Below are positions 10,875 through 56,575 of a stretch of 61,058 nucleotides of DNA, in pieces (position 1 is the first letter of the stretch; every line of letters begins with the position of its first letter). The notes under the pieces were generated by a model that saw nothing but the letters and a program-made list of their open reading frames with translations, was not told where the DNA came from and made no database searches. The stretch covers positions 1 to 61,058 of the forward strand of contig JBPOIM010000020.1 in the NCBI GenBank assembly GCA_052034485.1. Direction: 5' to 3'. The translations under genes and the position numbers were made by a program. The DNA is from Candidatus Anderseniibacteriota bacterium (GTDB lineage Bacteria; Patescibacteriota; Andersenbacteria; UBA10190).

Positions 10875-10876
10875 CA

Positions 10877-19016: not shown

Positions 19017-20462
19017 ATGAATCAGAAATACATCCCCTGGCTATATGCCCTTCTTGTGTTAGCGATATTTGCCCCTCGAGTAATTTCTCTTGATGCATTT
19101 ACATCCCCAGACGAACCTCAATGGGAGCGTAATACACAAAATTTTGCAAAAGCGTTAGAAAATTTTGATTTAAAAAACTTGTACCAGCAACCTCACCCAG
19201 GAATTACCACTCAATGGCTTGCGGCCGCTACAATCAACGACACAACATGGGGACAAAAACGAATGCCGCTTGCAGTATTTCTTAGTGTAGCTGTTTTATA
19301 TATTGCATACATCATAAAAAAAGAATGGGGAGATACCCCAGCGCTTATTGCCGGTTTTCTCCTTGCCTTAAACCCGCTACTAATTGCGCATTCCAGAGTC
19401 CTTGCTATGGATGCTCTCCTAGGAGTGTTTTGTATCGCGACGGTATTGCATCATATTGTATGGATTGAACACAAAAAACAAAAAGATATTATATTAGCAG
19501 GAGTATTTTCGGCATTGGCAATGCTTTCCAAGCTTTCGGCCTTTGGACTCATCATATACATCCTTCTCGGGAGCATCATTGCCTTCACGAGCAAAAAACT
19601 AACGTGGAAGGATTTACTGAATGGAGCGTGGATATACGCCGCTTCAATCATCGTAGCTTCAGTTATTGCGTTTCCGACACTTTTAACTAATTTCCCATAC
19701 GTCTTAGAAGGTAGCTCGCAATTTTTCCATACAGAGCATTTTCAGCAAAAAGTGCATGCGCTTGGGCCATGGTGGTATCCGCAAGCATTTTTACTTTGGA
19801 CAACCCCTCTTCAGCTACTTGGGATTCTGCTTATCCCCCTTGCAGTAGCAAAGCACTCCAAACACCGCCTGCCTATTCTTATGGCATTTCTATTTTGCAT
19901 TATATTCTTTCTAGAAATCCAATATTCCATTAAAAAGGGAGACCGCTACATGCTCCCCGTATTTATAGGTTTTGATATAATAACGGCCTTTGTATTTACT
20001 TTACAGTCTAAAAAATATGCAAAAATTGCATTGGCAGCATGCGCAGTAGGCATTATATGGCAAGGATATCAGGTATGGGACCTCCACCCATACGAACTTG
20101 CATACCGCAATCCGTTCTTTGCTTCTATTGCAAAGGGTCGCACCATGGGCTGGGGAGAGGGCCTAGATGTAGCGGCAGATTATCTTAATCAAAAAGAGCA
20201 CCCCGAAAACCTCCTTGTGGCGTCATACTATGAAAGCTCTTTCGCATATCACTTTAAAGGCAAATTTACCTCAGCAGAACGCCTCGGAAAAGAAACGGCC
20301 GAAGAAATAGGGGCAGATTATGTTGTGCTATACAGAACCATGGAAGGGCGAGCCGAAAACCGCTGGGAAACAAAAGTACTTGCTGCATACAAGGACAAAA
20401 CTCCAGAAAAAGTTATCACACTAAATAACGAAGAATACGTCTGGATATACAAAGTGAAATAG
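19017..20462 (+). CDS. GT-C glycosyltransferase, PMT/ArnT-like (WGEGL paralog family)
   Basis: The ORF-track start 18990 is a TTG; the first ATG is 19017, 6 nt downstream of TGcTATACT. APRVISLDAFTSPDEPQW, HPGITTQW, KKGDRYMLP and GWGEGLDVAADYL. Confidence 0.75.
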   Translation: MNQKYIPWLYALLVLAIFAPRVISLDAFTSPDEPQWERNTQNFAKALENFDLKNLYQQPHPGITTQWLAAATINDTTWGQKRMPLAVFLSVAVLYIAYIIKKEWGDTPALIAGFLLALNPLLIAHSRVLAMDALLGVFCIATVLHHIVWIEHKKQKDIILAGVFSALAMLSKLSAFGLIIYILLGSIIAFTSKKLTWKDLLNGAWIYAASIIVASVIAFPTLLTNFPYVLEGSSQFFHTEHFQQKVHALGPWWYPQAFLLWTTPLQLLGILLIPLAVAKHSKHRLPILMAFLFCIIFFLEIQYSIKKGDRYMLPVFIGFDIITAFVFTLQSKKYAKIALAACAVGIIWQGYQVWDLHPYELAYRNPFFASIAKGRTMGWGEGLDVAADYLNQKEHPENLLVASYYESSFAYHFKGKFTSAERLGKETAEEIGADYVVLYRTMEGRAENRWETKVLAAYKDKTPEKVITLNNEEYVWIYKVK

Positions 20463-20464
20463 TT

Positions 20465-22009
20465 CTATTTTCTCTTATAGATTACGATATCTCGAGAAGC
20501 TGGGTTTGGTATTGTTGCAATAGGACTAAAGTCCTCTTTTAAAACATTGCGAAGATCGGCCGTGGCTTCTGTGCCAGCGTTGAAATACACATCATTCGTG
20601 CGCCAATCAACAACAATCCAATTAACATCCCTCTGGACAAGTCCGGCAACCGTATCAAAATCCGGAAGAAATACTTTTCGAATTTCTGATGGCAAATATC
20701 CCGCCCTCTCCGAAAGGTACCATCCAGGATGCGTATACCCGCCATACAATGGAAGATACGATAAGTATGCGTAGGCTGGCTGAGCAGTAAATATAGCTTC
20801 TTTTGGCACAACATTTTCTTTCAAAATCTGCGCCACCTTAAGAGCAGCCTGCACCTCTACCGTGCCCCTATACTGAGCAATGGGTATGCGCTGGTATGTT
20901 GTTACCAAATCTATAGCAAAGAGAATTGCAAAAATACCAAAAATAACCACTTTCCCCTTTATTTTATTAGCCATACTACCAACAGAGCTAATAAAAAGAG
21001 CTGCTGCTAATGCGAGTGCCGGAGTTGATTCGAGAGGGTAAAATGGCGTAGGGCTCCTCCCCCATCCCTTATAAAAAACAATAAAGCTGCCAACCCAAAC
21101 ACAGACAACAAGCACAACGCTTTTGGGCCAGGCATTTTTTCGAATTGCACTATAAGCAACAAGCACTGGCAAAAGAAGTGCGGGTATTAAAATACTTAAT
21201 CCATCCAACCGGAGCGGAAGTGCCGCATTGTACAACCCATCAAAAAACGAAACCGGAGCGGAATTTGAATATACTTGTCGTTGCTTATTTGCTATTAAAG
21301 TAGCGTCAGCATTAAAGAAAAAGGCTGTTTTTGGCCAACCATACAGAGGATACACAACACTAAGTGTTACAAGAATCAACACGACTCCAGATATACAAAA
21401 TCTTGCAAGCGCCTTCCATCGATCGGCACGCATAAGAATAAGCAGAAGGAGCGTTGGCGCAAAAGCTACTGCACTGGCACGCATAAGCAACGCTGCCCAC
21501 AATAATGCTGCCGCAACAGGAATATAAACTATTTGCTTGCGTAAAAACAGGAAGGCAAGAAGGACGCAACAAAGCTCAAGCGGAATATGGGTAATATTTG
21601 ACGTAAGACTTACAACAACTCCAGATACCCCCCATAGGAGCGCAGCTATCATTGAGGCACGCTTCGATAAAGAAAACGATCGTGCCAAGTGCCAAATAAT
21701 AAAAATAGAAGCAATATGCGCAAATGAGGCAAAAAGACGCGTAACAAGTATCGATCGCCCAAACACTTGTTGCCAACCATGAAAGATAACCAACCAAAGA
21801 GGCCCCTTTGTACCACCAAATTCTCGAAATGGTAAAAAGTGAGGAGAAATTTGGGCAGCATCCTGCATATAGGCACTCTCATCTTCAATAATATTTAGTC
21901 GAGGAATCAAATAAAGATGAAGGCAGAACGAGATAAAGGCTATTCCCAATAGAGCCTGATACTCCCTTTTATGAAGAAAAGACGTAAGAAAGGTTATAAT
22001 TTTTTTCAT
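20465..22009 (-). CDS. GT-C glycosyltransferase-like polytopic membrane protein
   Basis: The ORF track extends to 22090; ATG 22009 (MKKIITFL...) avoids overlap with the divergent gene and sits 6 nt downstream of TGgTACGAT. IPRLNIIEDESAYMQDAAQISPHFLPFREF. C-terminal AIFTAQPAYAYLSYLPLYGGYTHPGWY is shared with ORF 27462..29840. Confidence 0.7.
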   Translation of the reverse strand: MKKIITFLTSFLHKREYQALLGIAFISFCLHLYLIPRLNIIEDESAYMQDAAQISPHFLPFREFGGTKGPLWLVIFHGWQQVFGRSILVTRLFASFAHIASIFIIWHLARSFSLSKRASMIAALLWGVSGVVVSLTSNITHIPLELCCVLLAFLFLRKQIVYIPVAAALLWAALLMRASAVAFAPTLLLLILMRADRWKALARFCISGVVLILVTLSVVYPLYGWPKTAFFFNADATLIANKQRQVYSNSAPVSFFDGLYNAALPLRLDGLSILIPALLLPVLVAYSAIRKNAWPKSVVLVVCVWVGSFIVFYKGWGRSPTPFYPLESTPALALAAALFISSVGSMANKIKGKVVIFGIFAILFAIDLVTTYQRIPIAQYRGTVEVQAALKVAQILKENVVPKEAIFTAQPAYAYLSYLPLYGGYTHPGWYLSERAGYLPSEIRKVFLPDFDTVAGLVQRDVNWIVVDWRTNDVYFNAGTEATADLRNVLKEDFSPIATIPNPASRDIVIYKRK

Positions 22010-22015
22010 GTTTTC

Positions 22016-22024
22016 ATCGTACCA
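22016..22024 (-). promoter_or_regulatory. extended -10 TGgTACGAT at -15..-7 of ATG 22009 (minus strand)
   Basis: Reverse complement reads TGGTACGATgaaaacATG. Confidence 0.45.
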
Positions 22025-22030
22025 CAAGCA

Positions 22031-22039
22031 TGATATGCT
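22031..22039 (+). promoter_or_regulatory. extended -10 TGaTATGCT at -15..-7 of ATG 22046
   Basis: caTGATATGCTgtgcccATG. Back-to-back with the minus-strand element at 22016-22024. Confidence 0.45.
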
Positions 22040-22045
22040 GTGCCC

Positions 22046-22753
22046 ATGTATGAGAAGATCAAACAGCAATGGAACAAATCTTCGGACCACCTCTCTGGAT
22101 CAGATGCCTTTTGGGAAAGAAGTGCGCTCGGTCTATCCCTTCTCGTAGACTTCAAGAAAGTTTTGACTAAAGAGAACATTCATGGCAAATTGCTCGACGC
22201 TGGTGCCGGCAAGCTTTCGTATAGACACCTCGTACGCCCCCTCTGCACCGAATACAAAAGCATGGATTTCCAAAAGACCCACCCAGAACTCGATTACCAA
22301 TCAGATATTCAAGACATGCCCCTTGAGAACGAATCTTTTGACACCGTGCTATCTGCGGAAGTATTAGAGCACGTACCCGACCCAGAGAAAGCTCTACGAG
22401 AAATATATCGAGTTTTAAAACCAGGAGGAAAGCTAGTTATGTCCATTCCTCACCTTATGTATCTCCATAATGAGCCATACGATTTTTATCGATATACCCA
22501 ATATGGATTGCGAACCCTACTGGAGCGCGTCGGCTTTACTGTTGAATACTTGAAACCATCTGGAAGCATCTTCTCTTTTCTACAAGGAATTATTGCAACA
22601 ACTTTTATAGGGCTAACATACAATATTCCAATCATTTGGGAGATTACTTTTCTTCTGAGCAAAAATACCAGCAAGATCGCCATCTGGCTAGACAATCACA
22701 CCGACAAAAAGAAGATTTTTGCGCTCCACTTTATTGCCGTTGCTCGCAAATAG
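22046..22753 (+). CDS. class I SAM-dependent methyltransferase
   Basis: The ORF-track start 22040 is a GTG; ATG at 22046. LLDAGAGKLSY, FDTVLSAEVLEHV and KPGGKLVMSIPH. Hydrophobic C-terminal segments IFSFLQGIIATTFIGLTY and IPIIWEITFLL. Confidence 0.8.
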   Translation: MYEKIKQQWNKSSDHLSGSDAFWERSALGLSLLVDFKKVLTKENIHGKLLDAGAGKLSYRHLVRPLCTEYKSMDFQKTHPELDYQSDIQDMPLENESFDTVLSAEVLEHVPDPEKALREIYRVLKPGGKLVMSIPHLMYLHNEPYDFYRYTQYGLRTLLERVGFTVEYLKPSGSIFSFLQGIIATTFIGLTYNIPIIWEITFLLSKNTSKIAIWLDNHTDKKKIFALHFIAVARK

Positions 22754-22762: not shown

Positions 22763-24355
22763 ATGAAATTGCTTGGCCTCCTCTCCAAAGAATATAAGCT
22801 CGACATCATTCTCATTGTAATCCTTGCGATACTGGCCCTTGCCGTAAGAATCCCAATAGCAGCAGAAAGAAAAATCATGCCCGCAGGCGATGCATTCAAT
22901 TTTCAGCATATCGCTAGCGCTATCCAGTACGGAAAGTACCCAATAAAAGAAAAACGACTCCCGAGCTACCCAGTATTTATTCTCATGGGAAGATCCATAG
23001 GGCTCGACCCCATCAGAACAAGCATTGGAATAAGCATTGTTGCATCGACTGGAACAATTCTCGCGCTTTACGGCCTGGGAAGAGTTTTTGGATTTAACCG
23101 AGCTGTCCTTGTTGGAGTTCTAGGTCTTGCTATTTTTGATGAACTCCTCGTAATTAACGGGATACGACCATTGGCAGACGGTTTATTTGTATTTTTTGTA
23201 GCAACAACATTCTACATGACCGCTCTTTTTCTTCGATACCCAGAATACGCATCGCCTCGCCTCAAGCTACTCTACAGCATTGTTATTACCTTTCTTATGT
23301 TTACTCGCTACGAAGGATTTCTTATTGCCGGACTCACAGCGCCTTTTCTTTTTATAAAACTCCCCTGGAAAGAAGTGGGGAAAATGGCACTCATTCCCAC
23401 AATCGCAATTATTCTTTGGATTCCTGCCTATAAGTCAATCCATGGATCCGTAGCAGGTCTTTCGTACATCACAGACGCAACAAGTTCAGATGGTGGGTTT
23501 GGAGAACTCAGCTTACTTCCAGACAATCTTAACAGACTACTCAATGGTGCGGGCTGGAGAGTTGCATGGAGCTACCCACAAGAGGTATTTGAAAAAGGAT
23601 TTTCAATAGATGCGACATACGAATTAATATCATCTCCTTTTTGGTGGATGGGAGTTCTATCAATTATTGGTCTATTGTACATACTCGCTATCGGCAGGTC
23701 TGCCGGACTCACAATTATTCTAGCTGGAATAGGGTACGCACTCCTCCTTTCCTGGTGGTGGGTATATAGCAGGTACGTAGCACCGTTATCAATATTATTT
23801 TACTTCGGAGCCGCTGGTGGATTAACTCTGGTAACACAAACAATCCAACTTCTATTGGAAAAATTTTCCAAAAAAGTGGCTGCAATAAGCTTTCTCGCAC
23901 CCCTCGTTCTTGTTCCAATACTTCTTACGGAAATCCCAACTATGCACAACCGAGCAATGGGGCGCGCATGGGAGTCCAACAGAAAAGGATATTCATTATA
24001 TGAAGCAATGGTTGCTACTGCGAAAAAAAGTGGCCCTATAGTATACCCAACGGAAGAACACGCAAATGCGACATTATTTTTTGGACAAATTGATAAACCA
24101 CGCTCCGCAGCAAATCCGGCAAAAGGAATGTATTTATCACGATTCCCAAAAGCAACACCAAACGAACTATTTGAAATACTTGCAGTCGAAAAACCGAGAT
24201 TCTTCATTGAAACAGATTACGACGAGAGGATTCCGAACCTTTTATTCCTCATGAAGAAACATAAGATTATTACAAAAGACAATGTATACCAAGAAACCCT
24301 ATGGGACACCCTTGATACAGAAACAACCCATGTATATGAACTCAATTGGCCCTAA
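22763..24355 (+). CDS. large polytopic membrane protein, GT-C-like
   Basis: 530 aa. TM1 then PAGDAFNFQHIASAIQYGKYPIKEKRLPSYP, paralogous to SGGDAYNYLFITKAI...KRLPGYP of ORF 40640..42889. Soluble C-terminal ~130 aa. Confidence 0.55.
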   Translation: MKLLGLLSKEYKLDIILIVILAILALAVRIPIAAERKIMPAGDAFNFQHIASAIQYGKYPIKEKRLPSYPVFILMGRSIGLDPIRTSIGISIVASTGTILALYGLGRVFGFNRAVLVGVLGLAIFDELLVINGIRPLADGLFVFFVATTFYMTALFLRYPEYASPRLKLLYSIVITFLMFTRYEGFLIAGLTAPFLFIKLPWKEVGKMALIPTIAIILWIPAYKSIHGSVAGLSYITDATSSDGGFGELSLLPDNLNRLLNGAGWRVAWSYPQEVFEKGFSIDATYELISSPFWWMGVLSIIGLLYILAIGRSAGLTIILAGIGYALLLSWWWVYSRYVAPLSILFYFGAAGGLTLVTQTIQLLLEKFSKKVAAISFLAPLVLVPILLTEIPTMHNRAMGRAWESNRKGYSLYEAMVATAKKSGPIVYPTEEHANATLFFGQIDKPRSAANPAKGMYLSRFPKATPNELFEILAVEKPRFFIETDYDERIPNLLFLMKKHKIITKDNVYQETLWDTLDTETTHVYELNWP

Positions 24356-25334
24356 AAATATTCTCGTAACTGGTGCGGCGGGTTTTGTTGGAAGCTATTT
24401 AATTGCGGAACTTTCCAGACAATACCCAAAAGCAAAAATTCACGGCACATTGCGCCCAAAAGAATCTACCGACAACCTAAAAGACATAGAAGCAACCTAC
24501 GAACTCCATGAGCTAGACATAACGGACGCCCCTTCCGTGTATTCCCTCATAGAGGCAATACATCCCGACAGTATCTTTCATCTTGCTGCCCAAAGCTATG
24601 TGAGAACATCTTGGGAATCTCCCCAAGCGACTATTACAACAAACATCTTGGGAGAAGCTAATCTTCTTGAAGCGGTTCGCCTGCTAAAAACAAAAAGGTA
24701 CAACCCGCCAATTGTCCTTGTGTGCTCTTCGGAAGAATACGGGATGGTTCCAAAGAAAAGCATACCGATTACAGAAGAAGCCCCACTATCCCCTCTCTCC
24801 CCTTATGCTGTGTCCAAAATAGGTCAGGACTTCTTAGGCTTTCAGTATTTTAAAACATATGGGCTCAATACGATCCGACTTAGGGTGTTTAACCACACTG
24901 GCCCAAAGCGCCCTACAGCTTTTGGAGATAGTCACGTTGCCCATGAAATAGCCCTCATAGAAGCGGGTTTACGAGATGCCATTATTACGTATCGAGACTT
25001 AACAGCTATTCGAGATTATTCAGACGTACGAGACATCGTGAAGGCGTACGTGGCTGCGGCAAAATATTGCAAACCAGGAGACGTATATAATGTATGCTCA
25101 GGCAAAGGAACTTCTATAAAACAAATCTACGAAACGCTTATATCCCTTTCTAATACAAAGAAAAAAATTCGCCTCAAAGCAGACCCCAGTGGCCCACGAC
25201 CAACAGACGGCGGAGTTATTATTGGAAGCAATAAAAAATTCACAAAGCGAACATCGTGGAATCCGGAAATAGATTTCTTAAAACAAACATTACCGGATAT
25301 CCTTGAATATTGGAGAAACCAAATAGCACTATGA
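24336..25334 (+). CDS. extended SDR of the GDP-mannose 4,6-dehydratase / GDP-4-keto-6-deoxymannose reductase (GMD/Rmd) type
   Basis: ILVTGAAGFVGSYL, CSSEEYG, SPYAVSK (YxxxK) and VFNHTGPKRP. The ORF track starts at 24282, inside the upstream gene; ATGs at 24330 and 24336 give a normal N-terminus. The stop overlaps the next start (ATGA at 25331-25334). Confidence 0.7.
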   Translation: MNSIGPKNILVTGAAGFVGSYLIAELSRQYPKAKIHGTLRPKESTDNLKDIEATYELHELDITDAPSVYSLIEAIHPDSIFHLAAQSYVRTSWESPQATITTNILGEANLLEAVRLLKTKRYNPPIVLVCSSEEYGMVPKKSIPITEEAPLSPLSPYAVSKIGQDFLGFQYFKTYGLNTIRLRVFNHTGPKRPTAFGDSHVAHEIALIEAGLRDAIITYRDLTAIRDYSDVRDIVKAYVAAAKYCKPGDVYNVCSGKGTSIKQIYETLISLSNTKKKIRLKADPSGPRPTDGGVIIGSNKKFTKRTSWNPEIDFLKQTLPDILEYWRNQIAL

Positions 25335-27454
25335 AGCTTTCAATACTCGTCCCCGTATATAACGATAAAGACTATATTCAGCAGACCATAAATCAGATTA
25401 AGGCTGTTACATTTCCTGTTCCCTACGAAATTATTGCTGTGGACGATGCCTCTACGGATGGAAGTAAAGAAATACTAGAGTCAATCTCCGGAATTACGAA
25501 AATCTTTCATAAAAAAAATACGGGGAAAGGAGGCGCGATAGCAACTGGGTTGAAACATGTAACCGGTGACATTGTGGCTATTCAAGATGATGACTGCGAA
25601 TATGACCCCGCTGTTCTTCCGTCGTTAATCCAACCCATACTTAGGAATGAGGCCGATGTTGTATATGGATCTAGATTCCTCCAAAAAAACTCAATGTTTT
25701 TTATTCAAAAACTAGAAAATATCGCCATTACAACACTCGCAAACATATTAATTGGGCAAAAATTAACAGATATAGAAACTGGCCATAAGGTATTTACTCG
25801 CAATATCGCAAATAAAATCACCCTTATTAAAAAGGGATTTGAGTTTGATATGGAAATAACACTTCAATTCTTACGCAATAATGCAAAAATTAAAGAACTT
25901 CCAACAAAATATACTGCCAGAACACACGCTCAGGGTAAAAAAATCACATATAAAGATGGCATACGTTCCATATTTACCCTATTTCGCCTCGTGCCAGCGC
26001 AGCGTATTAAGGCACTTGCAATTTGGATAACATTTTTATGCATGGTTTTCATTCCTCGACTATGGGGGCTAGGCCACATCCTCACGATAGACGAACCACT
26101 CTGGTTATCTCGGGGCGCAACATTCATTAATGCTTTTTCTACAGGGAATTTCGCAAGAACCCTAGTTGCGGGTCAGCCCGGAGTTACAACTGCGTGGCTT
26201 TCTGGCCTATCGTCTCCATGGCACTCTCTTGCAGCAGGGCAAGCTTCCATAGGCATAGCAACGGGAATATTAATTCTTCTGAATACATATTTTTTGCGAC
26301 GCGTAATTGGCAACACTTGGGGGCTAGTAACTGGAATGCTTCTTGCGCTTGACCCGTTCCTCCTAGCGCATAGCAGAATTGTTCACACAGACGCACTTCT
26401 TGCATTGTTTTACTTAGCATCCATTACGGGAATTTTTGCGGCATTCGCAAAAAAGAATCCGATAAAGCGATATATCATAGCAAGCGGCGCACTTGGGGCT
26501 GGTGCGATCCTCACGAAAGTTTTTGGAATTCTTCTTATTCCAACGGTAATAGGCATCATCTTCTTCTATACTTGGAAGAAGCGCCTGGGGATTCAAACCG
26601 TAGTTCAATATACCGGTATTTGGCTTTCTACATTTGCACTGATTACTTTTCTTGCTTGGCCCGCACTTTGGGTTAGCGCAAACAATGTATATGAACTCTT
26701 ATTCTCTCGAGCATCTCTTCATGCAGGAGGAACAAGAACAGAAGAAACAACCGCTACAGATTGGTACTATGCAAGAGAAGCGCTGTTTAGACTATCCGTA
26801 CCCACTACAATCTTACTTCCATTCGGGTTATGGCAAATACTAAAAAATAGAAAGCAGTCGAAACAACACATCACTCTTCTTCTTGCTGGATTATTTTTCT
26901 TCGCCATATTAAGCACTGGTTCCGACAAAAGCGATCGCTATCTTTTATTCTTTCATCTAACGCTAATTTGTATAGCTCCGCTAGGTATGCAAAAAATTAT
27001 ACAAATATTACAACAAAAAAACCTTGGTCAGTGGGCACCACTTATAATCATTCTCCCAATCCTCTATCTCGCAGTAGACAACGTAAGACTGTATCCATAC
27101 TATCTTGCACACTACAACAGGCTATACCCCATTGAAAAAACCCATAAGCTTGGTTGGGGAGAGGGGCTTGAACAAGCTGGGCTTTGGATGAGCACGCACC
27201 ACCCAAAGGCAAAAGTTCTCTCCTATTACCCAAGAGTATTTAGCTACTTCTTTCCAGGGGACGTTGAAACAATTACCCATATCGATGACGCAAACGGAAA
27301 CTATGCAATTCTATACCGATCAATGTTTGAGCGAGGAGAGGACTCCGGAGAAACAGATATTTTGAATGAGTATCTAAACTCTTCAAAATACAAACCAGAA
27401 CACACGATCTACATCAATGGACTCCCGTACGCCTGGATTATTCCGCTTACGTAA
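25331..27454 (+). CDS. in-frame fusion: DPM1/GtrB-like GT2 (polyprenyl-phosphate sugar synthase type) + PMT/ArnT-like GT-C domain
   Basis: N-terminal ~220 aa: LSILVPVYNDKDY, IIAVDDASTDGS and IQDDDCEYDP. From about nt 26000 the protein is polytopic, with IPRLWGLGHILTIDEPLW (D-E at 26090-26095), QPGVTTAW, DKSDRYLL and GWGEGLEQAGLWM, as in stand-alone paralogs. One continuous frame. Confidence 0.8.
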   Translation: MKLSILVPVYNDKDYIQQTINQIKAVTFPVPYEIIAVDDASTDGSKEILESISGITKIFHKKNTGKGGAIATGLKHVTGDIVAIQDDDCEYDPAVLPSLIQPILRNEADVVYGSRFLQKNSMFFIQKLENIAITTLANILIGQKLTDIETGHKVFTRNIANKITLIKKGFEFDMEITLQFLRNNAKIKELPTKYTARTHAQGKKITYKDGIRSIFTLFRLVPAQRIKALAIWITFLCMVFIPRLWGLGHILTIDEPLWLSRGATFINAFSTGNFARTLVAGQPGVTTAWLSGLSSPWHSLAAGQASIGIATGILILLNTYFLRRVIGNTWGLVTGMLLALDPFLLAHSRIVHTDALLALFYLASITGIFAAFAKKNPIKRYIIASGALGAGAILTKVFGILLIPTVIGIIFFYTWKKRLGIQTVVQYTGIWLSTFALITFLAWPALWVSANNVYELLFSRASLHAGGTRTEETTATDWYYAREALFRLSVPTTILLPFGLWQILKNRKQSKQHITLLLAGLFFFAILSTGSDKSDRYLLFFHLTLICIAPLGMQKIIQILQQKNLGQWAPLIIILPILYLAVDNVRLYPYYLAHYNRLYPIEKTHKLGWGEGLEQAGLWMSTHHPKAKVLSYYPRVFSYFFPGDVETITHIDDANGNYAILYRSMFERGEDSGETDILNEYLNSSKYKPEHTIYINGLPYAWIIPLT

Positions 27455-27461: not shown

Positions 27462-29840
27462 CTATCTTCTCCTGTACAAAGTATATGTATCTCCGGCTTC
27501 GGAGTTACTCACTGACCCTATTTCCTCAAAGTCGGTATTGAGAATGTTTCTTCGATCTGGGTAACCATCAAAATATATCTCATTTGTCCTACTTTCCATG
27601 AGAATAAAGTTGACTTTCGTTCGCAGATATTCAGTCAAATCTTCTGGAGTAATAAATAAAAGGTCGCGTAATTCTTCCGATATAGTATGAAATCGCGCCT
27701 CCCTATACCAACCAGGATGAGAATATCCAAATATAATACTCCTATGGGAGAAACTTGTTGCAACTGGTTGAGCAGTAAATATTGCCTCATTATGAGGAAC
27801 ATTCTTTTCAATAAGACGCACAATATCAACAAGACTTTCCTGGGATACGGTTCCCGTATGAGGATAGATTAATGCCATTGCATATCCCTGGTATATAAGA
27901 GCACCTCCCACAAATACCGTAACTGCTCGTAAAGCCCAAGACATCCACTTCGGTTTAATCTTACCCCACACATCAAAGAGGAATTGATACCCAACACCAA
28001 ACAATAAGGCCAATTGTGGAATAAATTCCGTAAGATAACTTTGTCTAAATCTCCCCCAATGAGCATACGCCATAGTAGTAATGCCAAGCCATAACAGGGT
28101 AAGAAAAGGAACTTTCCATGATGGAAGATATTCTTTAGCAACCGATTTCTTTGCATATAAAATGGTTGCCATTGCGGTCATCAGAGGTAGCCCAATAACC
28201 AGATACGCAATGAAAAATGTAGTTGAAGTAAACCCTTTCGGAAGCAGGAAATTAGTATCGTATAAATGCACAAGCACTTCCCTATTAATAAGAAAGAGAA
28301 CGAAAAGTATACTAAATATAGACAACACTCTTCGGGGGTTGATATACATGATCGGAACGATAAAAAGTGGAACAAGTAATAATGCCCCCGATCTCCATAA
28401 AACCCGAGACTCTATTGTAAGCGAACGTATAATTGACTCATTTTGCGCATCCCGAGTCTCAGATATATCCTGGCGGTTTTGAGATATAAGAAAAGCTTCC
28501 ATATTCATAGTAACCGCAGCCTTTGGTAGACCTATAGCGCCAATAAGAAGCAAAAACGTAACAATAAATGCTGAAATACCTGTGCCAACATATACAAGAG
28601 CAAGGCGAAAACGTTCTTTTTTTGAGGCATACAATAATAGTGCAAGCACTCCAATTATTGCTGGTAGGGCGGAAGTAATGCGAATAAGAAACCCTGCCGT
28701 AAACACAAGCGCAGCACTCACAGCAAGCTGACAAGACGCCCTCTTAGCGGCACGGGTAGCGAGCAAGAGTCCAAATATTGAAACCGCTATGCTCGTCGAT
28801 CCTAGCAGGAGAGGCGTTGTAAGGGCGACAGATGCCGGAATCAATGTAAATGCAAAGAGCGATAGAACTCTGACCTTCGGACTAATATTAAACTCTTTAA
28901 GAAGCCCCCAAAACCACCAAGCCCCCAACGCCCAACTTAACGCAGGGAATAGCCTCCAAGTAACTACTGCATGGGGCACAACAAAGCTCCAAAGCCAAAG
29001 TAGACCAAGATACAGCGGGCCTTTTGTAAGAAAATCTCGAAAGGGCATCAACTGCGAGGAAGTTTGCAAAGCGTCCTGAATATATGCCCCCTCATCGATA
29101 ATTAATGGAGTAAAAACAGAGAGCAAAATATGCAACATCACCCCAAATACAATAAAAATAGAAACAAGAACCTTTTCCGAAACAGAAAATTTCCGCAGCA
29201 GTACATACCCAAACACAGCAATAACCCCCATCCACATGCTTTGATACTCCCAAGAGGCAAGCCCACCAAAATATCTGCCAATGTCTGAATTTTTATTAAA
29301 AAGTCGAGAACCAGCCCAAACTTCAGAAAACGCTAGGTTACCCTTCAATACGCGACTGTTAGCATATGCGGCCCCCTCCGTGTATGCCTGAGCATCCTGC
29401 TCCCGATATACCCAAAAGGATTTCGAAGAAGCATGAGGAGCTTCCAGCACCCATAATAATTTTTCAGGCACTGACCATAAAGGAGAAAAGGTAAACGTCG
29501 CTTTTTCATCTTGAAACGTAAAAGCCGGCTTTGCGATAAGATCTGGCCCATTTAGGGACTTTTTTATATGCAAAACAAGCGGAGTGGGAGCGTCCGCAGA
29601 ACTCCCAATAGAAACAGTAACCCCCTTCAGGCCAGAATGGGGTATAAACTCCTGAGCAACGACCGTTTTATCGCCAAAATATACTCTATCCCCCTCTCCA
29701 GGGGGCGCAAGAATATTTCTATGAAAATCTATAGGAATGAGAAAGTATCCCAGGCCCCACAATACCCCCAGCGCAACAATAAAGAGGATAGGATATTTTT
29801 GAATCAAGCGGGTCAATCTGGAAAAAAGGAGGAATTTCAT
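27462..29840 (-). CDS. GT-C-like polytopic membrane protein with N-terminal extracytoplasmic module
   Basis: 792 aa. TM1, then a ~140-aa soluble module (VVAQEFIPHSGLKGVTVSIG...LVLHIKKS...TFTFSPL...LLWVLEAP), then a polytopic core with PLIIDEGAYIQDALQTSSQLMPFRDF. C-terminal AIFTAQPVATSFSHRSIIFGYSHPGWY. Confidence 0.7.
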   Translation of the reverse strand: MKFLLFSRLTRLIQKYPILFIVALGVLWGLGYFLIPIDFHRNILAPPGEGDRVYFGDKTVVAQEFIPHSGLKGVTVSIGSSADAPTPLVLHIKKSLNGPDLIAKPAFTFQDEKATFTFSPLWSVPEKLLWVLEAPHASSKSFWVYREQDAQAYTEGAAYANSRVLKGNLAFSEVWAGSRLFNKNSDIGRYFGGLASWEYQSMWMGVIAVFGYVLLRKFSVSEKVLVSIFIVFGVMLHILLSVFTPLIIDEGAYIQDALQTSSQLMPFRDFLTKGPLYLGLLWLWSFVVPHAVVTWRLFPALSWALGAWWFWGLLKEFNISPKVRVLSLFAFTLIPASVALTTPLLLGSTSIAVSIFGLLLATRAAKRASCQLAVSAALVFTAGFLIRITSALPAIIGVLALLLYASKKERFRLALVYVGTGISAFIVTFLLLIGAIGLPKAAVTMNMEAFLISQNRQDISETRDAQNESIIRSLTIESRVLWRSGALLLVPLFIVPIMYINPRRVLSIFSILFVLFLINREVLVHLYDTNFLLPKGFTSTTFFIAYLVIGLPLMTAMATILYAKKSVAKEYLPSWKVPFLTLLWLGITTMAYAHWGRFRQSYLTEFIPQLALLFGVGYQFLFDVWGKIKPKWMSWALRAVTVFVGGALIYQGYAMALIYPHTGTVSQESLVDIVRLIEKNVPHNEAIFTAQPVATSFSHRSIIFGYSHPGWYREARFHTISEELRDLLFITPEDLTEYLRTKVNFILMESRTNEIYFDGYPDRRNILNTDFEEIGSVSNSEAGDTYTLYRRR

Positions 29841-32436: not shown

Positions 32437-35239
32437 TAAAACAAGGGAACACCTCATTCCTGTAGGCATTGTAGTTATTACATGGCTAATTTTCTTTTTG
32501 CCCATCCTCTTAGGAATACGAGCGTATTTTTTAGATGATCTAAAAATTATCTACTACCCATTAGAGGTCATATACGCACAGGCCCAGCATTCTTGGCAGC
32601 TTCCTATGTGGTCAAACGAATTTGGTTTTGGACAGCCAATCATCGCTTGGGGCCAACTTGGGTTTTTTACACCACTACATCTTATTCTTAGGGCCTTATA
32701 CATACCCCCTATTGCGCTTCTGCAAATCTCCGTTGCTGCATACTTCCTATTTGGAAGTATTGGAATGTACTTATTTTTAATACGAAGGAAGATACATCCC
32801 GCAGCTGCCACACTGGGAGCCATATTATTTTCATATTGCGGGTTTCATATAGGGCACTTAAACCATGTAAATTTCTACACAAGCACAATGCTATTGCCAT
32901 GGCTGCTCATCGTTATCGACTCCATACTAAAGAAAAGTTCCCTTTCTACCGCCACAACACTAGCAATCATTGCTGCAGCAATCACTGTAAGCGGACAGCC
33001 TCAAATTATCTTTTATACATTCTGTATCGCAGCAATAATTGGAATTGCGCTATATACAGAACGCCCCCGAATAAAGCCCCTTCTTTGGATACTGTATGCT
33101 GGGATTGTCTCTTTTCTACTTTCCTCATTTGCATTACTACCCTTTAAAGAGTTTCTTCCCTCAACAGAACGGGGGAGTTCACTCCCAATGCAGGAACTAT
33201 TTGAGTTCAGCTACCCTCCATACGATACTATCACTTTGATTTTTCCGTACTTCTTTGGGGACCACGCGAACTATTCTGGGCCAAAAGGATTCCAAGAGCT
33301 TGCTGCATATGTCGGCATTATTCCTCTTATGCTAGCGGGAGTTTCGCTCATTCGATGGAAATCTCACACAAGAGAAAAAATAGCAGGCATTACACTAGCC
33401 CTCATTGGCGGAGCATTATCGCTAGGAAAATACTCTACCATCTATACCTACCTCGTAGACCAACATATCGTAACGAGCATTGGCGTTGTAGGGAGATTTG
33501 TATTCTTTTTTGATATCGGAATACTCCTGCTTGCCGCTATTGGACTTCACGAGCTGTATACCGCAACAAAAGTATCCATCAAGCAAAAAATAGCGTCTAT
33601 AGGCGCTTCACTACTTCTTCCAATTTGCCTTATTGGTATTCCATTCGGAATATATGCATCGTATACCCCTGAGGCATGGCGAAGATTCCAAGAACTTTTT
33701 TCAGTACACGCAGTATCGTTTTGGATTATCGTAATCGGCATTATTGGCGTTTTGACCTACATTATATGTAAAAATATAAAAGGAAAATATGCCACAGTAC
33801 TTCCGTGGGTACTTCCTGTACTCTCGTCTATCACCCTATTACTGTATGGCTGGAACTACAATCCAACAGCATCTGCGTCAGAAGCATACGCGCCCTCTCC
33901 ATTTACAACAAACCTTCTACAATACAGAGAAGAAACAGGGCTGCCAGCACGATTATACTCAGCAACACATCTCCCTGTTACAGGCAACCCGCACGTAGAA
34001 GTATTCCTTTCCGATAAAATATCCCCTTCGTTTACTGTATTTCAGCCGTTAAATATTGAGAAAAATAATCTTCGCTGCCTTACAATCCCCATTCAATCAA
34101 GCACGCTAGACGATACAAAAATGCTGATCACAATTCGAACTGGATTCACTGGTAAGATATGGCACACCCAAACAGTTTCCTCCGAGGACGCATTTAAGCA
34201 TACAGAGCAGCGTATTTGCTTCCCAGAAATACCAGAAAGTGACCGAGACGATCTCATGCTATCGTTTTCAAGCAACGAAGAAACGAGCATGCAAGTATTT
34301 GTAACTGCAAATAAAAGCGATAGTACTCGAGTATATTTCGTTCGAGTAAAAAATCCGAATACAGAACAACTCGCACGGTCACTAAAGCCTCTCTCGGTGC
34401 AATATACTCCGGAATTCCCAATCGTAAGCGACGTCGAAGCTTCTCTTATGATGCGTCATATTCAAGCTGTTGCAGGATCCTCAAGCGCTCGCTGGATTGG
34501 AGCATTATCTATTAAGCCATACAGAGAATTTGTTGATTCATTTTTTGCTAATGACTCTGACCCATTTGACGGAGACGGTATCCATGCACTTACAAGAAAT
34601 AAAAAGCTTGTAGATATGGTTGGGATTACCCATTTTGCACAATCGCTAGAGTACGGCCAAACCAACGACCCTATGCTTACTGCAGGATACACACTTCTCA
34701 ATGAAGCAGATACGGGGGATTCCATTATTCGACTATACAAAAACCCAAAAGCATACCCAAAAGCATTTATGGTACCCAATGCAGAATTTGTAGCAGCAGA
34801 TGATGAGGTGCGCTTTAAACTACGAGACCCAAATTTCGACCCAAAGACACTTGCCTATATATCCGGACCAATCCCCCCATCAACACCGCCCAAGACATCA
34901 TTGGCAGGCTTTTCTGGATCCGCAACAATAAAAACATACACCAATACAAAAGTGGAAGTTGAAACCACCGCAAATAAAGAATCGTTTCTTATCGTAAACG
35001 ACAGCACCACACCACAGTGGCAAACCTTCATTGACGGAGCTCCTGCGCTTCAACTAAAAGCAAATTCTATCTTTAAGGCCGCCCAAGTGCCTGCAGGAAC
35101 CCATACGGTAACTTTTCAGTACATCTCTCCAGCAATACAACAGTCAGAATTGCTCACAGCAATTGGAATACTCCTTAGCATTGGAGGCTATACGTACGCC
35201 CCCGTTGCGCGAAAGATGAAGCAGAAATTATCGAAGTAA
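32417..35239 (+). CDS. YfhO-family polytopic membrane protein (GT-C-like) with large C-terminal soluble region
   Basis: The ORF-track start 32396 is a TTG; first ATG at 32417. IIYYPLEVIYAQAQHSWQLPMWSNEFGFGQPIIAWGQLGFFTPLH. C-terminal FLIVNDSTTPQWQTFIDGAP...VPAGTHTVTFQYISP plus a terminal TM helix, typical YfhO layout. Confidence 0.7.
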   Translation: MKLFSTDKTREHLIPVGIVVITWLIFFLPILLGIRAYFLDDLKIIYYPLEVIYAQAQHSWQLPMWSNEFGFGQPIIAWGQLGFFTPLHLILRALYIPPIALLQISVAAYFLFGSIGMYLFLIRRKIHPAAATLGAILFSYCGFHIGHLNHVNFYTSTMLLPWLLIVIDSILKKSSLSTATTLAIIAAAITVSGQPQIIFYTFCIAAIIGIALYTERPRIKPLLWILYAGIVSFLLSSFALLPFKEFLPSTERGSSLPMQELFEFSYPPYDTITLIFPYFFGDHANYSGPKGFQELAAYVGIIPLMLAGVSLIRWKSHTREKIAGITLALIGGALSLGKYSTIYTYLVDQHIVTSIGVVGRFVFFFDIGILLLAAIGLHELYTATKVSIKQKIASIGASLLLPICLIGIPFGIYASYTPEAWRRFQELFSVHAVSFWIIVIGIIGVLTYIICKNIKGKYATVLPWVLPVLSSITLLLYGWNYNPTASASEAYAPSPFTTNLLQYREETGLPARLYSATHLPVTGNPHVEVFLSDKISPSFTVFQPLNIEKNNLRCLTIPIQSSTLDDTKMLITIRTGFTGKIWHTQTVSSEDAFKHTEQRICFPEIPESDRDDLMLSFSSNEETSMQVFVTANKSDSTRVYFVRVKNPNTEQLARSLKPLSVQYTPEFPIVSDVEASLMMRHIQAVAGSSSARWIGALSIKPYREFVDSFFANDSDPFDGDGIHALTRNKKLVDMVGITHFAQSLEYGQTNDPMLTAGYTLLNEADTGDSIIRLYKNPKAYPKAFMVPNAEFVAADDEVRFKLRDPNFDPKTLAYISGPIPPSTPPKTSLAGFSGSATIKTYTNTKVEVETTANKESFLIVNDSTTPQWQTFIDGAPALQLKANSIFKAAQVPAGTHTVTFQYISPAIQQSELLTAIGILLSIGGYTYAPVARKMKQKLSK

Positions 35240-40604: not shown

Positions 40605-40610
40605 ACTGCA

Positions 40611-40619
40611 ACCATACCA
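40611..40619 (-). promoter_or_regulatory. extended -10 TGgTATGGT at -15..-7 of asnB ATG 40604 (minus strand)
   Basis: Reverse complement reads tttTGGTATGGTtgcagtATG. Confidence 0.45.
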
Positions 40620-40624
40620 AAAAC

Positions 40625-40633: not shown

Positions 40634-40639
40634 CGGGAA

Positions 40640-56563: not shown

Positions 56564-56575
56564 ATCAAAATATCG

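Follow-up and report, generated by a model that had tools for sequence, protein, structure and literature searches.

A single gene in the window, the 61,058-nucleotide contig of Candidatus Anderseniibacteriota analyzed here, joins a polyprenyl-phosphate glycosyltransferase of the GT2 type to a GT-C glycosyltransferase. The gene lies at 25331..27454 on the forward strand, in a surface-glycan locus of this uncultivated member of the Patescibacteria, and both parts were recognized from Pfam matches to GT2 and PMT_2, the AF2 model and the orthologs. We consider it probable that this is a natural two-enzyme fusion, which would act like a covalently joined GtrB and GT-C pair in extracytoplasmic glycosylation.

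Reading frame and domain layout

In the open-frame listing the gene is one uninterrupted frame of 707 amino acids plus the stop codon, as a sequence-only reading of this DNA had claimed, and stops close both other forward frames at the junction (25900-26100). The open frame itself spans 25310 (TTG) to 27454; judged from the orthologs, the true start is the ATG at 25331, because 11 of 11 full-length orthologs begin with MKLSI. This ATG (25331-25333) overlaps the TGA (25332-25334) of the upstream SDR gene as ATGA, and the coupling of the two genes proposed earlier agrees with these positions (25331-25334). All motifs that the sequence-only reading had named were recovered in place on the forward strand, namely VPVYNDKDY (25349-25375), AVDDASTDGS (25436-25465), QDDDCEYDP (25583-25609), PRLWGLGHILTIDEPLW (26054-26104, with D-E exactly at 26090-26095), QPGVTTAW (26174-26197) and GWGEGLEQAGLWM (27152-27190).

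Pfam matches the GT2 family PF00535 with E 5.5e-35 (aa 4-162) and the PMT_2 family PF13231 with 36.2 bits, above the cut-off of 26.1 (aa 311-443). The PMT Pfam family is also matched, while the curated cut-off of an NCBIfam equivalog is reached by neither half. The AF2 model of the whole chain is confident (pLDDT 91.7, pTM 0.86), and the topology that it predicts is shown to be self-consistent, with the N-terminus inside and the C-terminus outside. The protein had been described as polytopic from about nt 26000, and the first transmembrane helix (TM1) is indeed formed by aa 223-244 (25997-26062).

The N-terminal domain

By sequence and structural comparison, aa 1-220 are a cytoplasmic polyprenyl-phosphate glycosyltransferase of the DPM1/AglJ/ArnC/GtrB type lacking transmembrane helices. 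The GT-A catalytic domain (aa 1-205, 25331..25945, +), predicted to be cytoplasmic and delimited by NCBIfam, the PfDPMS alignment and Foldseek, contains no hydrophobic segment or transmembrane helix of its own. Its top five NCBIfam matches are AglJ, PgfS, PpgS, Dol-P-hexose transferase and ArnC. The best match in both sequence and structure is PfDPMS, a type III enzyme (PDB 5MLZ; sequence E 8e-19, aa 1-218), and DPMS, ArnC and GtrB make up the whole top 15 in Foldseek.

The motif DDDCEY (aa 86-91, 25586..25603, +) aligns with 89-DADLQH-94 of PfDPMS, the metal/donor-diphosphate motif, so that D86, D88 and E90 correspond to Asp89, Asp91 and Gln93. R115 (25673-25675, +) aligns with Arg117 of PfDPMS, which positions the lipid phosphate (PMC5526996), and the acceptor-loop residues R197 to K203 (25919..25939, +) align with Arg202 and Lys208; the roles of the PfDPMS residues at the metal/donor and phosphate sites are those given in PMC5526996. 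D86, D88, E90, R115, R197 and K203 are invariant in 12 of the 12 fused proteins, and the alignments show the predicted metal/donor and lipid-phosphate sites to be intact. The domain is followed directly before TM1 by the amphipathic helix YKDGIRSIFTLFRL (aa 207-220, 25949..25990, +; DSSP on the model), whose hydrophobic moment of 1.44 is the highest among the helices tested. This helix lies where DPMS and GtrB have their interface helix and aligns after the A-loop of PfDPMS. The DXD motif, the equivalents of Arg117, Arg202 and Lys208 and the amphipathic interface helix are common to both proteins, whereas Arg131 and Ser135 of PfDPMS are replaced by Gln126 and Asn130.

The GT-C domain

The C-terminal part, aa 223-707, has an 11-helix GT-C fold. 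Its membrane domain (aa 223-587, 25997..27091, +) contains 11 transmembrane helices according to the AF2 model and the PMT_2/PMT matches. When the C-terminal part was compared with the PDB by Foldseek, all 44 matches ahead of the first non-GT-C protein were GT-C enzymes (E <= 0.03), including ALG12, ArnT, STT3, AglB, Pmt4, ALG9 and PglB, with TM of about 0.55 (range 0.5-0.58); a sequence profile of the WGEGL GT-C family found no PDB sequence at E<=1. The fold is common with the GT-C_A enzymes ArnT (5EZM/5F15), Pmt, ALG12/ALG9 and STT3/AglB/PglB, and the domain resembles them in carrying an acidic pair in its first outside loop; its identity to every solved structure is 10-13%, and its 11 helices and distinct WGEGL-bearing C-terminal domain set it apart. 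In NCBIfam the best match is TIGR03663, "flippase activity-associated protein Agl23" (E 1.5e-9, 37 bits versus a cut-off of 126).

Alignments and model place the acidic pair, D254-E255, right after TM1, where the first extracytoplasmic loop begins (26090..26095, +); it is invariant among close orthologs and at least 90% conserved in a set of 48 sequences. It is the putative catalytic acidic pair, a role that we assume from the PMT/ArnT families. A second strongly conserved motif in the alignments, HSRIVHTDA (aa 347-355, 26369..26395, +), has H347, S348, R349, H352, T353, D354 and A355 invariant or near-invariant, and D254-E255 and HSRxxHTDA are conserved in fused and stand-alone GT-Cs alike.

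The chain ends with an extracytoplasmic alpha/beta domain (aa 588-707, 27092..27451, +; DSSP strands and helices at 613-705), for which no Pfam family was found. It carries the invariant motif HKLGWGEGLE, with WGEGL at 27155-27169. WGEGL was looked for in 18 proteins of the window (membrane proteins and GT2s) and occurs in only three, the fusion and the proteins encoded at 19017..20462 and 35228..37243. BLASTP aligned the fusion with the latter at 30% identity over 500 aa (E 2e-49) and with the former at 28% over 481 aa (E 4e-43), in line with the earlier statement that these stand-alone paralogs have the same core; the strand of 35228..37243 is corrected to minus.

The cassette and its surroundings

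Upstream of the fused gene are two further genes that, together with the GT2, constitute a cassette. The second of them (24282..25334, +) encodes an extended-SDR protein resembling NDP-sugar 4,6-dehydratases/epimerases (Pfam GDP_Man_Dehyd, E 4e-67), whose true start is probably M17 or M19 (24330 or 24336). It passes no NCBIfam equivalog cut-off, and the specific sugar is not assignable. The SDR co-occurs with the GT2 in loci L003, L004, L005 and L006, and SDR-GT2 fusions occur elsewhere. The first gene (22763..24355, +) encodes a 530-aa polytopic membrane protein with no match in Pfam and NCBIfam, which is distantly GT-C-like in hhalign against the WGEGL GT-C profile (93.6% probability, E 2e-7, 260 columns). 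It is present in the cassette-bearing loci L003-L006 and absent from the cassette-less loci examined, and from its sequence it is a candidate alternative consumer of the lipid-linked sugar.

On the left, the cassette is flanked by a gene for a SAM methyltransferase (22040..22753, +; Pfam), and in the cassette-less loci L001, L002, L014, L015 and L016 this gene adjoins the stand-alone GT-C gene on its upstream side. On the right, a conserved 792-aa polytopic protein is encoded at 27462..29840 (-), with synteny in all loci; it is a paralog of the GT-C at 20465..22090 (-), with BLASTP identities of 27-29% in two segments (E 6e-26 and 8e-18).

The same pair of enzymes also occurs unfused in the window, in an aminotransferase-GT2-GT-C operon of ArnB/ArnC/ArnT-like layout (8947..12571, +; Pfam and NCBIfam). 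It consists of genes for a DegT aminotransferase (8947..10134, +), a 247-aa GT2 without transmembrane helices (10131..10874, +; NCBIfam Dol-P-hexose transferase, AglJ and ArnC) and a GT-C (10877..12571, +). Three other DPM1/GtrB-like GT2s are encoded in the window, and a search for a GtrA-like gene in the window found none. A small GtrA_DPMS_TM gene is present in the fused locus L003, and across seven loci the presence of this gene does not track the fusion state.

Split, fused and lost forms among relatives

The related loci display four states, namely the GT-C alone, the cassette with split GT2 and GT-C, the fused form, and the cassette without an adjacent GT-C. In the split state the genes for the 530-aa protein and the SDR are followed by GT2 and GT-C as separate ATGA-coupled genes, and L005 is such a locus, with adjacent GT2 and GT-C genes in ATGA overlap. 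The ortholog alignment places the junction of the fused protein at about aa 221-227 (25991..26011, +). This linker corresponds to the ATGA stop/start overlap of L005 and differs in length and sequence among orthologs, with indels of 0-9 aa; stand-alone GT-C orthologs begin about 10 aa before TM1. The fusion would be related to the ATGA-coupled pair by a reading-frame shift that removes the stop. From such a pair in a compact genome, a fusion could arise and persist nearly neutrally.

In the GT-C tree, fused and stand-alone forms interleave. In at least five syntenic sister loci the GT-C persists while the GT2 is missing, and therefore the GT-C does not rely on a fused synthase. One of these stand-alone proteins, P0017, still has part of the GT2 domain at its N-terminus, a scar showing that it derives from a fused ancestor by deletion. 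The cassette is present or absent as a unit and appears to be strain-variable and repeatedly lost. Since the GT2 always accompanies the SDR and the 530-aa protein, and is free-standing in L006, where the cassette has no adjacent WGEGL GT-C, the 530-aa protein may be the main consumer of the GT2 product. Among the fused proteins the N-terminal domains are 66-83% identical and the C-terminal domains 50-62%, and both halves appear to be under selection.

Fusions of this kind have also been formed from other parts. P0121 joins a GT2 of a different DPM1-like lineage to a GT-C of the same WGEGL family, and P0062, P0163, P0197, P0211, P0242 and P0105 are GT2-GT-C fusions with unrelated GT-C parts. 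The subfamily of the N-terminal domain is fused to flippase-like LPG_synthase_TM domains as well. The sequence-only reading had regarded the gene as a Rosetta-stone link between donor synthesis and donor use. That logic holds and is strengthened by the split form in L005 and by P0121, but a dedicated physical link is too strong a claim in view of the five sister loci without GT2, the alternative 530-aa consumer and the free GT2 of L006. The relatives carry the pair split, fused or deleted, and therefore the association of synthase and GT-C, on comparative evidence, is real but optional. That reading knew of no characterized example of this exact architecture; our search of the literature for a published description of a GT2 and WGEGL GT-C fusion likewise found none, and the architecture is sporadic in metagenomes.

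Proposed function and alternative explanations

In the proposed mechanism, the co-translated SDR would supply or modify an NDP-sugar, the sugar of which the GT2 domain would load onto polyprenyl phosphate at the inner membrane face. The lipid-linked sugar would then cross the membrane and be moved by the GT-C domain to a surface glycan or protein, while the 530-aa protein of the cassette probably also transfers lipid-linked sugar. The GT-C helices may in addition give the synthase, which has none of its own, its membrane anchoring.

Two of the alternatives would remove the basis of this mechanism. A single frame could result from an assembly or sequencing error joining two genes, and the split L005 differs at the ATGA overlap alone, so that a frame-shifting error there could mimic a fusion. 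The junction contains neither a stop nor a frameshift, and exactly the same 707 aa are encoded in the independent Logan assembly SRR8893622; the cluster at 90% has three members on different contigs (89, 79 and 61 kb), in eleven further clusters at 55-68% identity (NCBI, JGI, ENA and Logan) the fusion stays in frame while the linker varies in length, and in P0017 the part of the GT2 domain left at the N-terminus is read in frame with the GT-C. With the fusion carried by independent assemblies and diverged clusters, an artefact is essentially refuted and can be practically dismissed. It is very improbable, too, that the N-terminal domain is an ordinary GT2, processive or with a soluble or glycan acceptor, instead of a lipid-phosphate synthase. 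Among its closest sequence relatives there are many GT2-methyltransferase fusions whose function is unknown, the domain reaches none of the NCBIfam equivalog cut-offs, and GpgS, with its soluble acceptor, ranks lower among the Foldseek matches. However, matches to non-synthase GT2s reach the nucleotide-binding half alone (about aa 1-110), whereas those to DPMS, AglJ, PpgS and ArnC also cover the acceptor half, as far as about aa 200-220; the lipid-phosphate and A-loop residues are conserved, the last element of the domain is an amphipathic helix at the membrane, and its subfamily is fused to LPG_synthase_TM and GT-C domains. The grouping with processive enzymes that the earlier reading had named as a possible refutation was not found: NCBIfam, PDB and Foldseek all place the domain with polyprenyl-phosphate sugar synthases.

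The other two alternatives concern what the covalent link does. The GT-C helices might only anchor or activate the GT2, in the manner of GacJ/WpsB, DPM3 or Ppm1-D1, with the catalytic domains acting in different branches: the GT2 sugar would pass to the 530-aa protein, the fused GT-C would use the donor of another synthase, for which the three other GT2s of the window could serve, and the fusion would be a by-product of cassette insertion beside an existing GT-C gene. The coming and going of the cassette as a unit, the GT-C-like nature of its 530-aa protein, L006, and the persistence of stand-alone GT-C orthologs after cassette loss all agree with this, and synthases without transmembrane helices are known to need membrane partners (PMC10821137). 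Chance adjacency is nevertheless a poor explanation for the second synthase lineage of P0121 and the several unrelated GT-C families found fused, the ATGA coupling in L005 suggests co-expression, and the GT-C catalytic motifs are invariant in the fused proteins, so that we rate this explanation as unlikely, though it deserves attention. Less credible still is that the membrane domain mainly or additionally translocates the polyprenyl-phosphate sugar, an activity reported for archaeal Agl23. Agl23 is the best NCBIfam match of the C-terminal part, the N-terminal domain matches the haloarchaeal dolichyl-phosphate hexose transferase model, and the window has no GtrA-like gene; purified Agl23 of Haloarcula hispanica moved lipid-linked oligosaccharide in proteoliposomes (PMC11182771), and it has been proposed that PfDPMS flips its product by means of its own membrane domain (PMC12992685). 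Against this, the Agl23 match is far below its cut-off, the invariant acidic pair and conserved outside C-terminal domain typify active GT-C transferases, and the GtrA_DPMS_TM gene of the fused L003 does not track fusion.

Comparison with known systems

Gtr systems combine a synthase (GtrB/CsbB/GacI), a flippase (GtrA/Wzx) and a GT-C (Gtr*/YfhO/GacL) (PMC11127046, PMC10821137). In these systems and in ArnC/ArnT, as proposed for the fusion, a GT2 inside makes a polyprenyl-monophosphate sugar and a GT-C outside uses it. Unlike them, the fusion combines synthase and GT-C in one polypeptide, with a synthase part that lacks transmembrane helices, and the window has no GtrA-like gene. PfDPMS has a 4-helix GtrA-like domain, whereas the membrane part of the fused protein is a complete GT-C enzyme. 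The Agl22/Agl23 system of H. hispanica comprises an N-glycosylation glycosyltransferase and a proposed hexose-P-dolichol flippase (PMC11182771). These are two different proteins; the matches of the fusion to the Agl23 and haloarchaeal dolichyl-phosphate hexose transferase models are far below the family cut-offs, indicating a distant relationship.

Synthases without transmembrane helices are known with several kinds of membrane partner. Type II DPM1 uses the separate subunits DPM2 and DPM3 (PMC12992685). Ppm1 of M. tuberculosis (Rv2051c) is such a polyprenyl-P-mannose synthase fused to a polytopic membrane protein, and relatives encode its D1 and D2 as two neighboring genes (PMC3485146). Ppm1 thereby parallels the split and fused states of the WGEGL fusion, but its membrane domain lies at the N-terminus, consists of six helices and does not belong to GT-C, whereas that of the fusion is C-terminal and of the donor-consuming class. 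In GacI/GacJ and WpsA/WpsB the GT2 needs a small membrane activator of the GtrA family, which lets the synthase face its lipid substrate, and natural GacJ-GacI fusions exist (PMC10821137); that partner is a small 3-helix N-terminal protein, in contrast to the large C-terminal enzyme of the fusion. Comparable anchoring is achieved by GtrB and PfDPMS through their own helices, and by GacI, WpsA, DPM1 and Ppm1-D2 through partner proteins.

Identification of a genuine fusion gene

The sequence-only reading had described positions 25331-27454 as one uninterrupted frame coupled through ATGA to the upstream SDR gene, and the ORF listing agrees on both points: a single open frame extends from 25310 (TTG) to 27454, and the ATG of the fusion (25331-25333) overlaps the TGA of the SDR gene (25332-25334). 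Because all eleven full-length orthologs start with MKLSI, the ATG at 25331 was accepted as the true start, giving a protein of 707 aa with a GT2 N-domain (aa 1-220) and a GT-C C-domain (aa 223-707). The motif positions claimed before are all exact, including the D-E at 26090-26095. In Pfam, the N-domain matches Glycos_transf_2 (PF00535) at aa 4-162 with E 5.5e-35, and the C-domain, matched at aa 302-443, exceeds the cut-offs of PMT_2 (36.2 bits against 26.1) and PMT (25.7 against 22.7).

An assembly artefact is ruled out, since the identical 707-aa protein is encoded in an independent Logan assembly of run SRR8893622, three proteins, from contigs of 89, 79 and 61 kb, make up the 90%-identity cluster of the fusion, and the same architecture is present in 11 further, diverged clusters with 55-68% identity from NCBI, JGI, ENA and Logan, one of which bears the name Candidatus Andersenbacteria. 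No frameshift or stop was found at the junction, and stops close both other forward frames across 25900-26100. In the alignment, the GT2 part closes with KKITYKDGxxS, followed by a linker varying from 0 to 9 residues and then by TM1, while stand-alone orthologs of the C-part begin about 10 residues ahead of TM1; this pattern is that of a genuine domain junction. Identity among the fusions is 66-83% in the N-domain and 50-62% in the C-domain, and both halves are under purifying selection.

The C-domain also has two stand-alone paralogs in the window, at 19017..20462 and 35228..37243. BLASTP recovered them with 28-30% identity over about 480-500 aa (E about 1e-43 to 1e-49), so that their proposed paralogy holds, with the correction that the second lies on the minus strand. 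Among the 18 window proteins checked (membrane proteins and GT2s), the WGEGL motif occurs only in three, namely the fusion and these two paralogs; GT-Cs of this kind are called the WGEGL family below.

The N-domain resembles lipid-phosphate sugar synthases

The five best NCBIfam matches of the N-domain are AglJ, PgfS, PpgS, the haloarchaeal dolichyl-phosphate hexose transferase and ArnC, enzymes that without exception charge polyprenyl or dolichyl phosphate with a sugar. All five matches stay below the equivalog cut-offs, also those of the named equivalogs AglJ, ArnC, PpgS and PgfS, the best being AglJ with 118 bits against 325. By these profile scores the N-domain is placed in the polyprenyl-phosphate GT2 class but outside every named equivalog, and the possibility raised earlier that it might group with non-synthase GT2s is not borne out, its best matches among characterised enzymes being lipid-phosphate synthases. 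Its best sequence match in the PDB is the dolichyl-phosphate mannose synthase of Pyrococcus furiosus (PfDPMS; E 8e-19, aa 1-218), with ArnC and GtrB next, and the PfDPMS alignment spans both the donor half and the acceptor half, whereas ordinary GT2s align only over the first ~100 residues. Moreover, the AlphaFold model of the full-length protein (pLDDT 91.7, pTM 0.86) has only DPMS, ArnC and GtrB among its top 15 Foldseek matches in the PDB.

We then mapped the active-site residues, using the residue roles reported for PfDPMS, in which Arg117, Arg131, Ser135, Arg202 and Lys208 place the lipid phosphate or close the acceptor loop (PMC5526996). In the alignment, the invariant D86-D87-D88 falls on the PfDPMS DAD motif, and D86, D88, E90, R115, R197 and K203, which correspond to Asp89, Asp91, Gln93, Arg117, Arg202 and Lys208, are invariant in all 12 fused proteins. 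Arg131 and Ser135 are replaced by Gln126 and Asn130 in the fusion, and both of these are invariant as well. Residues 1-222 contain no hydrophobic segment, and the two C-terminal TM helices of the GtrB/ArnC type are lacking; the helices after aa 222 are those of the GT-C. The N-domain instead terminates in a strongly amphipathic helix (aa 207-220, hydrophobic moment 1.44) directly before TM1. Because of the family matches, the span of the PfDPMS alignment and the conserved residues, together with the lack of a hydrophobic segment of its own, the N-domain is assigned as a TM-less synthase domain of the DPM1/PpgS/GacI type, with predicted transfer from an NDP-sugar to polyprenyl phosphate.

The C-domain has a GT-C fold

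In the fold search with the full-length model, GT2 matches filled the list and it was uninformative on the GT-C half, so a separate model of aa 221-707 was made (pLDDT 93, pTM 0.93), which shows 11 TM helices followed by an alpha/beta domain at the C-terminus. Of the Foldseek matches in the PDB, all 44 ahead of the first non-GT-C one are GT-C enzymes, including ALG12, ArnT, STT3, AglB, PglB, Pmt4, ALG9, AftD, DPY19, AftA and Emb, with TM-scores of about 0.5-0.58 at just 10-13% identity, and the following matches fall to a probability of 0.1. The sequence profile of the GT-C family had no PDB entry at E<=1, and the link to solved GT-Cs thus comes from fold comparison alone.

D254 and E255 lie about 10 residues past TM1 and are invariant in the alignments of close orthologs; fused and stand-alone members both conserve them, together with GQPG, HSRxxHTDA, KSDRY and HKLGWGEGLE. 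With a cytoplasmic GT2 and 11 helices, D254-E255 falls into the first outside loop, and the WGEGL domain lies on the extracellular side. Putatively, the GT-C uses a polyprenyl-phosphate-linked donor outside the membrane, on the logic of fusion and gene adjacency.

Gain, fusion and loss of the cassette among relatives

The fused GT2 belongs to a cassette together with the SDR gene (24282..25334) and the gene of a 530-aa protein (22763-24355, plus strand), and syntenic loci from relatives show four states. In the first, five loci (L001, L002, L014, L015 and L016) are without the cassette and have a methyltransferase, a stand-alone GT-C and a 790-aa gene in succession. In the second, L005 has the 530-aa membrane protein, the SDR and a GT2 of 231 aa, with a separate GT-C of 500 aa joined by an ATGA overlap. 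The third is that of the window and L003, where the GT2 of the cassette is in frame with the GT-C, and in the fourth, L006, the GT2 is free, the cassette is followed by a YfhO-like gene and the WGEGL GT-C is not adjacent. Neither Pfam nor NCBIfam has a match for the 530-aa protein, yet hhalign relates it to the GT-C profile with a probability of 93.6% (E 2e-7), and it may represent an unannotated GT-C family, as judged from profiles. It is polytopic, always accompanies the SDR and GT2, and is weakly similar to 40478..42889.

The idea that the fused forms are one clade is rejected by an NJ tree of the GT-C domains with bootstrap values. Fused (F) and stand-alone (S) forms interleave, with 100% bootstrap for each of the groups P0006_F and P0017_S (85% identity), P0002_F with P0015_S and P0016_S, and P0012_F with P0024_S and P0030_S. 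P0017, a stand-alone GT-C encoded at 5001-6563 of L014, carries a GT2 remnant at its start: in the protein alignment its first residues, MEITFKFLQH, align with residues 174-183 of its fused sister P0006, which lie inside the GT2 domain. This start is a deletion scar, left when the cassette was lost along with the greater part of the GT2 domain, and shows that P0017_S descends from a fused gene. A tblastn search of the five cassette-less loci with the window N-domain gave no significant match to a GT2 remnant. It follows from the interleaved tree and the scar that the fusion is old within this clade and that the cassette was lost repeatedly.

To search more widely, a profile built from the 12 fusions was run against 1.84 billion representative proteins. 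Just a handful of the 150 best matches are two-domain proteins, and the others are stand-alone WGEGL-type GT-Cs or stand-alone TM-less GT2s of 220-250 aa. A separate scan of genome contigs used N-domain patterns and counted relatives with that domain only. In P0121 (729 aa), the GT-C part is orthologous and well conserved, and 40% of residues are identical across the whole alignment. The GT2 at its N-terminus has diverged much further, with DCDMTYP in place of the DDDCEY motif, and also groups with AglJ, Dol-P-hexose transferase and DPMS. P0121 thus has the same functional pair, either fused independently or with one domain swapped. Five further proteins, P0062, P0163, P0197, P0211 (from a Diapherotrites archaeon) and P0242, carry a GT2 of the same subfamily attached to unrelated PMT/PMT_2 domains, and in P0105 its partner is a GT22 domain.

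The same subfamily is also found fused to SDR epimerase/dehydratase, LPG_synthase_TM ("flippase-like") and methyltransferase domains, examples being P0266, P0268-P0270, P0274, P0279, P0281, P0282 and P0285. SAM methyltransferases are its commonest fusion partner (~470 aa, many phyla).

Proposed mechanism and alternative explanations

A polyprenyl-phosphate sugar made on the inner face and used by a GT-C outside is a universal scheme, of which Dol-P-Man, Und-P-Glc and Und-P-Ara4N are examples. The fusion consists of a TM-less lipid-phosphate synthase domain with an intact predicted active site, tethered via an interfacial helix to TM1 of an intact GT-C whose putative catalytic loop lies outside the cell. 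In the proposed mechanism, the SDR would provide the NDP-sugar, the GT2 domain would load its sugar onto polyprenyl phosphate, the lipid-linked product would be flipped across the membrane, and the fused GT-C, the 530-aa GT-C-like protein or both would pass the sugar to a surface acceptor. The GT-C helices could replace the membrane partner that TM-less synthases require. Such partners are found in GacI/GacJ and WpsA/WpsB, and natural GacJ-GacI fusions exist (PMC10821137); likewise, Ppm1 of Mycobacterium tuberculosis has its D1 and D2 domains fused, which are split in M. smegmatis (PMC3485146).

We consider it probable that the two fused domains act in sequence on the same lipid-linked sugar. 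The covalent pair and the recurrence of such fusions favor the Rosetta-stone link suggested earlier; what does not stand is a dependence of the GT-C on its fused synthase, since the GT-C persists after loss of the cassette. That persistence fits a fusion serving as an anchor only, with the GT2 product going mainly to the 530-aa protein, an explanation we rate as unlikely. Even if anchoring were a mere convenience, the protein would still be a new architectural class of lipid-sugar synthase beside DPMS types I-III, which are described in PMC12992685.

The question whether the fused membrane domain takes part in flipping can be put at its strongest as a single machine that makes, flips and uses its product: the GT-C would take the polyprenyl-phosphate sugar directly from the attached synthase and provide the path for the headgroup, without a flippase of the GtrA/Wzx type. 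In H. hispanica, Agl23 has been proposed as a hexose-P-dolichol flippase, and when purified it translocated a lipid-linked oligosaccharide (PMC11182771). For PfDPMS, it has been proposed that the membrane domain flips what the enzyme makes, and the Dol-P-Man translocator has been called a long-standing question, membrane crossing of lipid-linked sugars being still largely unresolved (PMC12992685). The Agl23 family (TIGR03663) is the best NCBIfam match of the C-domain, at 37.4 bits, far below the subfamily cut-off of 126.25, and from this score the C-domain would be a distant relative only. A tblastn search of the window found no GtrA-like gene, with the GtrA_DPMS_TM proteins (63-67 aa) from L001-L003 and L016 as queries, and the scanned window ORFs have no match to PF04138 or PF01943; the window is gene-dense, and a flippase could be encoded elsewhere in the genome. 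The fused locus L003 has a GtrA_DPMS_TM gene, and since its presence across loci does not track the fusion state, it gives no argument on flipping. We hold a machine of this kind to be improbable. If it were true, the protein would be a natural minimal system for translocation of monophosphate-linked sugars such as Dol-P-Man.

The GtrA_DPMS_TM proteins are two-helix proteins of 63-67 aa, half the normal GtrA size, encoded on the minus strand at 3487-3678 of L001, 3464-3667 of L002, 855-1046 of L003 and 695-886 of L016. The gene sits between two GT-C genes, adjoins a methyltransferase of ~185 aa in L001, L003 and L016, and is missing in the window near 20462-20465. The protein could be an activator of TM-less GT2s of the GacJ/WpsB type, or half a flippase.

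Compared with a GtrB/ArnC plus GT-C system, the fusion is alike in function, with both domains falling into the corresponding classes, but it differs in being without GtrB's own helices, in having no named equivalog and in having no flippase encoded nearby. Full-text literature searches turned up no account of a synthase naturally fused to a GT-C; a PNAS 2024 three-component paper (PMC11127046) and the lactococcal paper (PMC10821137) mention only other fusions. The architecture is present in public protein collections without a specific name. A monophosphate-linked donor for a PMT_2-type GT-C is no surprise to the specialist; the fusion and its split or deleted relatives are genomic evidence tying the unannotated WGEGL family to such donors, and this covalent pair with its natural variants is a handle on both the translocation problem and the dynamics of cassettes in Patescibacteria. 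The single-chain protein is a compact construct for structural work or reconstitution of coupled synthesis, translocation and transfer. The cassette is also an example of gain, fusion and loss of surface-glycan genes in Patescibacteria. To our knowledge, such cassettes cannot yet be tested genetically in these bacteria.

The surrounding glycan locus

The window is a very large glycan locus with about ten GT-C-like genes, several SDRs, methyltransferases, GT4s and sugar-nucleotide genes. It contains four DPM1/GtrB-like GT2s, namely the fusion, 10131..10874, 14581..15297 (minus strand) and 50888..51823 (minus strand), the last of which (311 aa) has the canonical two C-terminal TM helices of the GtrB/ArnC architecture. 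TM-less, TM-bearing and GT-C-fused variants of one enzyme class thus occur together in one genome region. The unfused equivalent of the fusion is an ArnB/ArnC/ArnT-like operon at 8947-12571, in which a DegT-family aminotransferase (8947..10134), a TM-less DPM1-like GT2 of 247 aa (10131..10874) and a PMT_2 GT-C (10877..12571) follow one another on the plus strand with boundaries overlapping or 3 nt apart, and which probably makes and uses a lipid-linked amino sugar.

For the SDR of the cassette, no specific sugar pathway was assignable by NCBIfam. Its first ATG lies within the end of the 530-aa gene, an overlap of 74 nt (24282-24355), and since its orthologs have 324-331 aa, the real start is probably M17 or M19 (24330 or 24336). 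Downstream of the fusion, a conserved 792-aa protein without a family match (27462-29840, minus strand) is a paralog of the PMT_2 protein at 20465..22090 (minus strand), with 27-29% identity in two segments, and is probably another GT-C by this resemblance; it has an extra N-terminal region of ~220 aa.

A run at 53764-58675 (minus strand) encodes a cytidylyltransferase-like protein, a 751-aa protein without a family match, a HAD phosphatase, a PfkB kinase and a SIS isomerase, which we take to resemble a nucleotide-activated heptose pathway (GmhA/HldE/GmhB-like); an NTP_transferase (51881..52759) and an RmlD-like gene (58685..59512) are nearby. At the left edge, a 358-aa ORF (103-1179, plus strand) shares 38% identity with the C-terminal 340 aa in a 610-aa protein (42893..44725, plus strand) and matches the YfhO model at its C-terminal end; this could be a C-terminal domain that is either truncated or encoded on its own. 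One member of the 90% cluster of the fusion lies on a contig of 61058 bp, as long as the window, which is therefore probably a complete contig. All 2-kb bins of the window (1-61058) have a negative GC skew, with a cumulative value of -3.5.
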